From a virus (taxonomy: Duplodnaviria > Heunggongvirae > Uroviricota > Caudoviricetes): a DNA stretch of 30,914 nt. Each line of letters opens with the position of its first letter. Position 1 is the stretch's first letter. The notes below the pieces were generated by a model. That model was not told the origin of the DNA and ran no database searches. It saw nothing but the letters and a program-made list of their open reading frames with translations. Made by a program: the position numbers and the translations under genes. Positions 21,602 through 22,441 of this stretch are shown here, in pieces. The DNA lies in IMG/VR virus record IMGVR_UViG_2537562231_000009, positions 1 through 30,914 of that record. One strand, written 5' to 3'.

Positions 21602-21740
21602 GCAGAATATTTTGCTGAAAAATGAGGTTTGCTTACATGGATGGATAACACGAAATCCTGCAAATTGGCAAAATGTAAGTGAATAAAGTCAAAACAGTTG
21701 TTTAACACTCAGGCACCGTAATGATGCCTTTGTCATTTCT

Positions 21741-21762
21741 GCGCATCTCACGCGCATCTCAC
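21741..21762 (+). repeat. Perfect tandem duplication of the 11-mer GCGCATCTCAC
   Basis: Read in the intergenic region between the endolysin and the antirepressor-like gene. Confidence 0.7.
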
Positions 21763-21871
21763 AACACAGAACCTTTCAGGATGACCCTTGAGGATACCGG
21801 TTTGGCTGTCGGTGCCTTTCTGTGGGCTGGATTCCTGTGAGACAAGGTTCATCACTAAAAGGAAATAACCG

Positions 21872-22441
21872 ATGAATATGATGGCCGTGCCGTTTCACGG
21901 CAACTCTCTTTATGTAGTTAACCATAATGGCGAACCATACGTTCCCATGAAACCTGTCGTTGCGGGGATGGGGCTGGCCTGGCAATCACAGTTGGCTAAG
22001 TTAAGACAGCGTTTTGCGTCAACTATAACGGAAATCGTTATGGTTGCTGAGGATGGGAAACAACGCAATATGGTGTCCATGCCACTTCGAAAACTTGCCG
22101 GCTGGCTACAAACCATTAATCCCAACAAAGTAAAACCCGAAATCCGCGATAAGGTCATCCGGTATCAGGAAGAGTGCGACGATGTTCTTTACGAGTACTG
22201 GACGAAGGGTTTTGTCGTTAATCCCCGTAAAATGAGCGTGATGGAAGAACTCAACCAGGCTTGTGCTGACATGAAACGGGATAAAAACATTGCCAGTGTG
22301 TTTGCTACCGGGCTGAATGAGTGGAAACAGGTTAAAGCCGCGCATGTATCAAAAATCCGTACGCTGGTAAATGAAGCGAATATGCTGATTGATTTTGTCC
22401 TGGCTGATACAGGCAAAGGGAAAATAACAAAGGCGGATTGA
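21872..22441 (+). CDS. Antirepressor-like protein (P22 Ant N-terminal-domain type), inserted between endolysin and Rz
   Basis: N-terminal region AVPFHGNSLYVVNHNGEPYVPMKPVVAGMGL resembles antirepressor N-terminal domains; track ORF. Confidence 0.55.
   Translation: MNMMAVPFHGNSLYVVNHNGEPYVPMKPVVAGMGLAWQSQLAKLRQRFASTITEIVMVAEDGKQRNMVSMPLRKLAGWLQTINPNKVKPEIRDKVIRYQEECDDVLYEYWTKGFVVNPRKMSVMEELNQACADMKRDKNIASVFATGLNEWKQVKAAHVSKIRTLVNEANMLIDFVLADTGKGKITKAD

Follow-up and report, generated by a model that had tools for sequence, protein, structure and literature searches.

Leaders that hide the Shine-Dalgarno sequence of dose-sensitive genes in phages or mobile elements are known from Mu mom, which is opened by Com, from the lambda N leader (RNase III), from IS10 with its fold-back inhibition of read-through transcripts and from the standby-site mRNA of tisB. 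A gene named ant or d_ant between the endolysin gene R and the spanin gene Rz is already known from hundreds of Shiga toxin (Stx)-type phages, whereby in the literature the 270 bp upstream of it count as mere intergenic DNA and its product is regarded as a putative antirepressor. For phage Phi24B, d_ant was called putative by Nejman-Falenczyk et al. (PMC4426718), who also proposed a target site of the microRNA-size RNA 24B_1 within it, and in the 2023 follow-up its role is still speculation (PMC10732415). We found no functional or antirepressor test of the R-Rz ant protein in the literature. Here we describe this locus in the IMG/VR virus record IMGVR_UViG_2537562231_000009 (Caudoviricetes), of which a stretch of 30,914 nt was analysed (hereafter the window). 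The region represents the accessory cassette ant/d_ant already known from lambdoid phages of the Stx type, ~0.9 kb in size (roughly 21696-22590) and located in the R-Rz spacer. Its parts are, in this order, a weak hairpin resembling a terminator, a structured leader RNA of ~135 nt, the gene for 189 aa and a membrane peptide of 48 aa. Possibly new is that the seeming non-coding gap upstream of the gene is part of a conserved, covarying RNA leader of many accessory late genes. We favour, with moderate confidence, the view that the cassette carries a portable structured leader with the Shine-Dalgarno sequence in its basal helix, which gates a Rha-type late gene, and that a perfect tandem 11-mer within the leader is coincidental.

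The leader family has a conserved secondary structure backed by compensatory changes. It comprises a small first hairpin (HP1), a single-stranded CA-rich linker and the stacked helices P1, P2 and P3, the base of which pairs the Shine-Dalgarno sequence. In the window HP1 is followed by the linker (21757-21771) and a long composite hairpin (21772-21862). P1 is formed by 21772-21790 and 21843-21862, whereby CCUUU-CAGGAUGA-CCCUUG on the 5' side pairs with CAAGG-UUCAUC-A-CU-AAAAGG on the 3' side. P2 joins AGGA (21791-21794) to UCCU (21833-21836), P3 joins CCGG (21797-21800) to CUGG (21827-21830; family form CYGG). RNAalifold on MAFFT alignments gives P1, P2 and P3 as three stacked helices. The minimum-free-energy (MFE) fold of the window copy has -39.6 kcal/mol and contains HP1 as well as P1-P3. 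Here the Shine-Dalgarno region of the ant gene pairs with 21772-21776 with a probability of 0.67-0.75.

The covariance model of the leader (R1) was built from the two closest subtypes only. It recovered all other subtypes, and all its strong matches had the orientation of the gene that follows: scores were 42-169 bits on the forward strand, while the weak matches on the reverse strand reached 24-28 bits. For 42 distinct leaders aligned by means of the model, 96.6% of the cells are standard pairs, and 25 of the 29 pairs have changed on both sides (131 cells). The observed value was reached by none of 500 shuffles on any of five measures. When the 3' partners were shifted by 1-3 columns, pairing fell to 28-50% and the number of compensated pairs to 1-7. 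HP1, helix 1 of the family, is 95.8% paired with compensatory changes in three of four pairs. Helix 2 (CCUUU/AAAGG) is 94.2% paired across these leaders and shows compensatory changes in all five pairs. Several compensations can be read from the unaligned sequences. The 933W type has GCCCUG/CAGGG in place of CCCUUG/CAAGG, ES18 and an Enterobacter phage have CCGUUG/CAACGG for CCUUUG/CAAAGG, the ES18 type has GUCAG/CUGAC for ACCAG/CUGGU and the TerB-linked type GGUGAGC/GCUCACC for GGAUGA/UCAUC. In HP1, UGCGC/GCGCA is replaced by UGCGU/ACGCA (L068 and L011; L numbers are our handles for phage records). Moreover, the mRNA strand has many G.U pairs, as expected for an RNA rather than a DNA cruciform.

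The leader is typically preceded by a terminator. A strong terminator hairpin with T-run is found 9-48 nt upstream in 32 of 40 representatives. The window copy is a weakened version, its stem having one C x A mismatch, whereas close relatives have a perfect stem (GGTGCC). Two other candidate features of the leader were discarded. A small open reading frame (ORF; MTLEDTGLAVGAFLWAGFL, 21781-21840) contains stops in 933W- and P22-type leaders and 1-2-nt indels between subtypes, and the CsrA-type GGA motifs in the 5' arm are not kept in P22- and TerB-type leaders. Rfam 15 yielded no match for the region at gathering thresholds and none at E <= 10 in 21400-22700. Full-text searches for sequence strings of leader and repeat, as well as for KilA-N/Rha late-gene leader keywords, retrieved no description of the leader.

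A motif scan of IMG/VR revealed 82 leader copies in 53 sequence variants. Leaders of the family reside in phages of Escherichia, Salmonella, Klebsiella, Enterobacter, Proteus, Photorhabdus, Hamiltonella and Actinobacillus. Gap positions ~139-270 (21740-21871) match Salmonella P22-like phages with 85-89% identity (blastn). There the leader is located after Rz and precedes other genes, which encode a KilA-N protein in ST104 and proteins of the Rha type in SPN9CC and ST64B. Stx2 phage P13374 has two copies, one before ant and one before a Rha-like gene after Rz, and a diverged leader precedes P22 rha and ES18 gene 79. The downstream ORFs carry, according to Pfam, KilA-N+ORF11CD3, KilA-N alone, KilA-N+P63C, Phage_pRha+ORF11CD3, Phage_pRha alone, an ANT (KilAC) domain or P22_AR_N+ORF11CD3. 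In Klebsiella phage RothC (L131 1514-2145) and Escherichia phage CharmingMan (L133 1500-2128) the leader stands before HNH_3+AP2 homing-type endonuclease genes, located just after Q/tRNAs and before the holin gene. Hence, the leader is confined neither to Bro-domain proteins nor to a position behind the lysis genes. In every case its homology stops at the start codon.

In Proteus, Hamiltonella and Photorhabdus the same protein family as in the window is found in or beside the lysis cassette, with a model match of 42-47 bits ending at the ATG. The order is holin, endolysin, ant-like gene and Rz in Proteus. In Hamiltonella it is holin, lysozyme, ant-like gene, two small ORFs, KilA-N gene and Rz, whereby a second leader precedes the KilA-N gene. 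In Photorhabdus the ant-like gene follows Rz. The family also bears on the annotation of P22 rha (L010, NC_002371). The annotated GTG start at 39575 lies inside the conserved leader, and an ATG at 39645 with GAAGG before it aligns with the start codons of other family members (39575-39647). The annotated N-terminus of P22 Rha is probably 23 codons too long.

The window itself harbours a second, diverged leader copy. It is preceded by a strong terminator (17283-17306) and followed by an ORF with TerB domain (17439-17870; Pfam TerB 2.2e-16). The combination of TerB and leader recurs in CharmingMan (L133 2784-2916) and in an Actinobacillus pleuropneumoniae phage (L140 585-722). In the latter, two such cassettes are likewise combined, namely TerB with leader and, after the endolysin gene, KilA-N with leader. 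As a side observation, the unit at 17283-17870 directly follows three tRNAs and thereby occupies the slot held by stx in Stx phages such as P13374; stx was not found in the window.

The way the leader is distributed could also be understood if it were conserved mainly as a DNA linker for recombination, with cassettes being swapped by homologous recombination or HNH-AP2 homing and the fold having no regulatory role. Near-identical leaders stand before unrelated genes with homology ending at the start codon, and the leader is linked to HNH_3-AP2 homing-type endonucleases. A chimeric leader (L096 2517-2654) combines HP1 and linker of the 933W type with a body of the window type, which demonstrates that recombination occurs within the leader. 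Bro-network genes are moreover known for shuffling of domains and cassettes (PMC10111431). However, such a linker does not predict 25 compensated pairs out of 29, G.U pairs on one strand or the constant pairing of the Shine-Dalgarno sequence, and diverged subtypes with ~50% sequence identity retain the architecture. We therefore regard this explanation as improbable.

The preliminary description of this DNA had proposed that the tandem 11-mer may be a regulator binding site. Tandem Repeats Finder (TRF) reports GCGCATCTCAC with 2.0 copies and 100% matches at 21741-21762 on the + strand. By our own arithmetic, a perfect 22-nt repeat with period 11 is expected ~0.007 times in 30.9 kb of random sequence. 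Elsewhere in the window the 11-mer is not enriched (7 matches with <=2 mismatches versus 9.4 expected). Its position within the leader offers another explanation. Copy 1 (21741-21751) covers the 5' arm of the HP1 stem together with the loop, copy 2 (21752-21762) the 3' arm and 7 nt from the start of the CA-rich linker. The two GCGC blocks, which make up half of the repeat, are demanded by the hairpin because they are the arms of the HP1 stem. The other half is an identity of the loop AUCUCAC with the start of the linker, which depends on the subtype. The repeat is perfect only in the lineage of the window and BP-4795. Near repeats are restricted to subtypes with the AUCUCAC loop, with one mismatch in L036, L075 and the second copy of L009, two in L027 and three in L140 (the Actinobacillus phage). 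In ST104, 933W, P22 and TerB-linked leaders the repeat is absent, the length being equal and the sequence different, and no length difference points to a recent duplication at this site. The 11-mer is thus missing from most homologous loci, an outcome that the preliminary description had named as refuting its reading, and at the same positions of 933W-type, P22-like and other homologous leaders there is no repeat. It represents a lineage-specific coincidence within the leader, better explained by a conserved RNA hairpin and its 3' linker, and a role as protein operator finds no support.

The layout of the locus, as given before, was borne out: a gap of 270 bp (21602-21871) with the repeat and a gene for 189 aa, all between R and Rz. 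The window constitutes the late part of a lambdoid prophage that is of the Stx-phage type. With 21000-23100 as query, megablast gave 466 matching phage records, 243 of which cover >=80% of the query (R-ant-Rz). The DNA is ~98% identical to BP-4795 and many Stx1a/Stx2a phages, where the annotations read 'ant', 'antirepressor' or 'phage antirepressor N-terminal domain-containing protein'. Among the 5426 complete genomes of E. coli, 674 harbour the cassette. With respect to ant/d_ant of Stx phages (933W, Phi24B, BP-4795, 7888, VT2-Sakai) it is the same gene in the same place, and the gene itself shows no differences.

Relative to lambda, phage 21 and P22 the gene is indeed an insert. That Rz follows R directly, as had been assumed, holds for P22, ST104, SPN9CC and ES18. 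In H-19B, by contrast, R and Rz are separated by a spacer of ~300 bp, the first 94 nt of which are homologous to 21602-21695. Accordingly, positions 1-94 of the gap, which is a mosaic, match H-19B, Stx2c and other phages without ant with 82-89% identity (blastn), and the homology stops at 21695. The insert has a G+C content (GC) of 0.41-0.49 compared to 0.54-0.60 in R and Rz. A 48-aa ORF between ant and Rz had been missed in the preliminary description. Its ATG overlaps the ant stop codon (TGATG), it contains a single hydrophobic segment, and 7 nt separate its end from Rz. Translational coupling to ant is conceivable. No Pfam match was obtained for it. It is annotated as ORF50 in BP-4795 and as ORF53 in P13374 and is not linked to ant in Proteus, Photorhabdus and Hamiltonella.

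As to transcription, a consensus scan, which is a weak test, detected no sigma-70-like promoter on the + strand of 20300-23700. A promoter inside the gap was likewise rejected, since manual inspection gave only poor hexamers. Between 22441 and Rz a similarly weak consensus scan detected no terminator-like site; the sole T-tract hairpin is the one upstream of the leader. The cassette hence shares with morons the insertion between otherwise adjacent genes and the deviant GC, but not an own promoter and terminator. As no own sigma-70-like promoter is seen, we infer that the cassette is most likely transcribed solely as part of the Q-antiterminated late transcript.

The domain search of the 189-aa protein confirmed the similarity to the Ant family. 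It matches P22_AR_N (PF10547) at aa 5-113 with 1.4e-45 and phrog_524 'anti-repressor Ant' with 2.4e-112, and a match to ORF11CD3 (PF10549) follows at aa 122-164. This combination of P22_AR_N and ORF11CD3 with ~188 aa defines a large family with 2580 matches at E <= 1e-5. The best 120 of these 2580 include proteins from Escherichia, Salmonella, Photorhabdus, Xenorhabdus, Serratia, Proteus, Providencia, Arsenophonus, Sodalis and Hamiltonella, and for all 120 the precomputed annotation lists ORF11CD3. An AlphaFold2 model (52 sequences, mean predicted local distance difference test score, pLDDT, of 74.8) comprises a beta/alpha N-domain and one long helix at residues 123-180. The fold of the N-domain is predicted to be KilA-N/APSES-like and thereby of a DNA-binding type. 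A search of solved structures by sequence gave nothing relevant.

The N-terminal domain is homologous to that of P22 Ant, with 50% identity over 127 aa (Ant residues 10-136, E = 1e-38). P22 Ant, however, has 300 aa and consists of P22_AR_N and P22_AR_C (PF10548, aa 200-272). The window protein lacks P22_AR_C and the rest of the C-terminal 170 aa and carries the ORF11CD3 helix there instead. Moreover, P22 Ant is encoded in immI under control of Arc/Mnt/sar, whereas the window gene belongs to a lysis cassette in the late operon without such control. Neither small repressor ORFs nor a promoter-like site were seen beside the ant gene, and Rfam has no match there. The earlier wording 'antirepressor-like' therefore stands for the N-domain, not for the C-terminal part or the setting. 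As the name rests on one shared domain while the C-terminal half of Ant is gone, the label is unproven, and P22_AR_N by itself is a poor ground for calling a protein an antirepressor.

A second relative fits the arrangement better. P22 Rha and ES18 gp79 (Phage_pRha + ORF11CD3, late operon) likewise have a C-terminal ORF11CD3, which is also present in the KilA-N protein of L011, and likewise occupy a slot beside the lysis genes with terminator and structured leader upstream. They differ in that the N-domain of P22 Rha is Phage_pRha rather than P22_AR_N, the overall similarity being marginal (E = 0.011), and in that their genes follow Rz whereas ant precedes it. What marks Rha-type proteins of the Bro network is found here, namely an N-terminal module of the KilA-N/Bro-N/Rha/P22_AR_N set, ORF11CD3 and a position in the lysis cassette of the late operon behind the shared leader. 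The protein is thus most likely a dimeric DNA-binding regulator of the Rha type and not a repressor binder of the P22 Ant type. Expression of Rha-type proteins reportedly inhibits phage growth in IHF-deficient hosts (said to go back to Henthorn and Friedman in 1995, the link to IHF being second-hand).

These data also bear on the assumption that the gene encodes a late antirepressor against the repressors of co-resident lambdoid prophages and that the 11-mer is an operator at a promoter in the 270-bp gap. The resemblance to the N-terminal part of a genuine antirepressor speaks for it, as do the name Ant used in databases and papers, the period of 11 bp corresponding to one helical turn of DNA and the recurrence of near-perfect repeats in a few other leader subtypes. 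It is at odds with the missing C-terminal half of Ant including P22_AR_C, with the + strand of the gap having no promoter-like site and with a repeat that most homologous leaders do not keep and that is not enriched elsewhere. Furthermore the GCGC blocks form both sides of an RNA hairpin that covaries, the leader is also found before genes for HNH endonucleases and TerB proteins, which do not belong to the antirepressors, and a functional test could not be found in the literature. We consider this assumption unlikely as well.

Taken together, our data favour a portable leader that gates a Rha-type late gene. According to this model, ant and the other leader-borne genes would be reached only by Q-modified late transcription that is resistant to the terminator. 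On the long late mRNA the leader would then keep translation of the downstream, probably dose-sensitive DNA-binding protein low or gated. The hairpin might be opened by way of a ribosome standby site on the CA-rich linker, by RNase III processing of the long helix or by a trans-acting factor. The linker could thus serve as ribosome standby or factor-binding site and the composite helix of ~25 bp as RNase III substrate.

Several points weigh against this model. The alignment used for the covariation counts had been fitted to the model and is thereby biased towards the structure, and many of the leaders are related, representing about six subtypes. The single-sequence fold of 21700-21890 is no more stable than that of shuffled sequence (z = +0.49), so that the case rests on comparative data. 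Leaders of the P22 type have the Shine-Dalgarno sequence just 3' of the main helix and only partly paired. The second window copy (17310-17441) folds differently on its own, with a pairing probability of ~0.08 for its Shine-Dalgarno sequence. Translational control as such is inferred from pairing alone. The leader may also persist as a recombination linker for cassette exchange, as the chimera L096 and HNH-AP2 suggest, which would be compatible with a role as RNA. On the side of the protein, the ORF11CD3 match is weak (5.5e-6, 27 bits versus a cut-off of 25), and the N-domain shared with a genuine antirepressor makes antirepressor activity possible.

A more far-reaching version of the gating model would be that the ~135-nt leader represents an undescribed, widespread class of cis-regulatory RNA in temperate phages of Enterobacterales and perhaps Pasteurellaceae, a portable unit of terminator, HP1, linker and Shine-Dalgarno-sequestering hairpin before exchangeable accessory genes (Bro-network DNA-binding proteins, HNH-AP2 endonucleases, TerB-like proteins) of the late transcript, acting as a true switch for a phage or host factor with HP1 and linker as sensor instead of a constitutive damper. 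This we can put forward only tentatively. Least probable is that the long hairpin chiefly serves RNase III or other processing of the late polycistronic mRNA, stabilising the lysis segment or uncoupling the accessory segment without any translational gate: P1, P2 and P3 form an interrupted double helix of ~25 bp, roughly the length of RNase III substrates such as the lambda N leader and T7 intergenic sites, and the leader lies at boundaries of gene blocks behind a terminator hairpin, but the helix is interrupted by several bulges and internal loops, the Shine-Dalgarno sequence constantly within the basal helix points to translation, and both roles are compatible, as in the lambda N leader.

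Features of the lysis region and of the second leader unit in the window. Positions refer to the window; MFE, minimum free energy; SAR, signal-arrest-release; TM, transmembrane.
Feature	Position	Strand	Basis
Three tRNAs	17020-17266		
Second, diverged leader copy	17310-17441	+	model R1 50.6 bits, E = 3.7e-9
nanS-p-like esterase	18450-20303		
Holin, phage-21 type	20453-20668		
DUF1327 protein	20670-21017		
Endolysin R, SAR-type lysozyme	21068-21601	+	Pfam Phage_lysozyme 5.3e-25; phrog_7 endolysin; hydrophobic N-terminus seen in translation
R-proximal spacer, left side of insertion point	21602-21695	+	blastn and alignment
Weak terminator-like hairpin GGCACC-GTAAT-GATGCC with T-rich tail TTTGTCATTT	21712-21738	+	read from sequence
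Structured leader RNA, full covariance-model match	21738-21874	+	model R1 159 bits, E = 1.3e-35; RNAalifold consensus; covariation; MFE fold
HP1 hairpin UGCGC-AUCUCAC-GCGCA, first leader element	21740-21756	+	MFE fold
Shine-Dalgarno region AAAGGA of ant gene	21858-21863	+	AAAGG 21858-21862 paired with CCUUU 21772-21776, base of P1
Ant-like gene, 189 aa	21872-22441	+	P22_AR_N aa 5-113; ORF11CD3 aa 122-164
48-aa hydrophobic one-TM ORF, last gene of insert	22441-22587	+	phrog_4906 1.5e-30
Rz i-spanin	22595-23062	+	Pfam Phage_lysis 1.5e-39; phrog_13 and phrog_3198 (Rz and Rz1 together)
Rz1 o-spanin, embedded in Rz	22815-23021	+	phrog_3198

Besides the leaders, the window contains further RNA elements and repeats. 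STnc100 (18039-18240, +) adjoins AgvB (18241-18302, -) upstream of the nanS-p-like esterase gene. A sok antitoxin RNA of a hok/sok-type module is located at 12613-12787 (Rfam). The heptamer GACCAGC is repeated in 34 perfect tandem copies at 13121-13358 (TRF score 476), and a tandem repeat of 162 bp with 1.8 copies and 87% matches (30622-30914) runs past the end of the window. At 9637-9835 Rfam reports c4-a1b1, isrK and C4 antisense RNA, corresponding to an RNA immunity module of the P1/P4/Gifsy type. Such modules usually control an ant/Bro-type gene. The prophage therefore probably has a separate early antirepressor-type system.

The leader occurs in medically relevant prophages (Stx phages of enterohaemorrhagic E. 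coli and P22-like Salmonella phages) as well as in prophages of insect symbionts and pathogens. Rha and KilA have been reported as harmful to phage growth or to the host. If the leader controls translation, it would help to understand how temperate phages set the amounts of their Bro-network, KilA-N and Rha proteins. It would also be a candidate Rfam family, improve the annotation of thousands of prophages and correct gene starts, e.g. that of P22 rha. If it even acts as a switch, genes of phage-phage and phage-satellite conflict, those of Stx phages included, would have a common control point.

Among known RNA systems, the c4/isrK antisense RNA of P1, P7, P4 and Gifsy-1 likewise controls Bro-network or antirepressor genes at the level of RNA. 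However, it is a trans-acting, processed antisense RNA of the early or immunity region, whereas the leader does not match those Rfam models and is a cis structure in the late operon. While the leader family is apparently new to Rfam 15 and to the literature we found, its kind is seemingly already known, i.e. cis-regulatory leaders that sequester the Shine-Dalgarno sequence; what characterises these, a conserved covarying helix pairing the Shine-Dalgarno sequence, is found in the model-fitted alignment. With Mu mom, the lambda N leader, IS10 and tisB the phage leader has in common a stable hairpin that covers the Shine-Dalgarno site of a gene transcribed by read-through, as well as a CA-rich single strand just 5' of it as a possible standby or factor-binding site. 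The phage leader shares no sequence or Rfam relationship with these four and, in contrast to them, represents a portable unit across many gene families.

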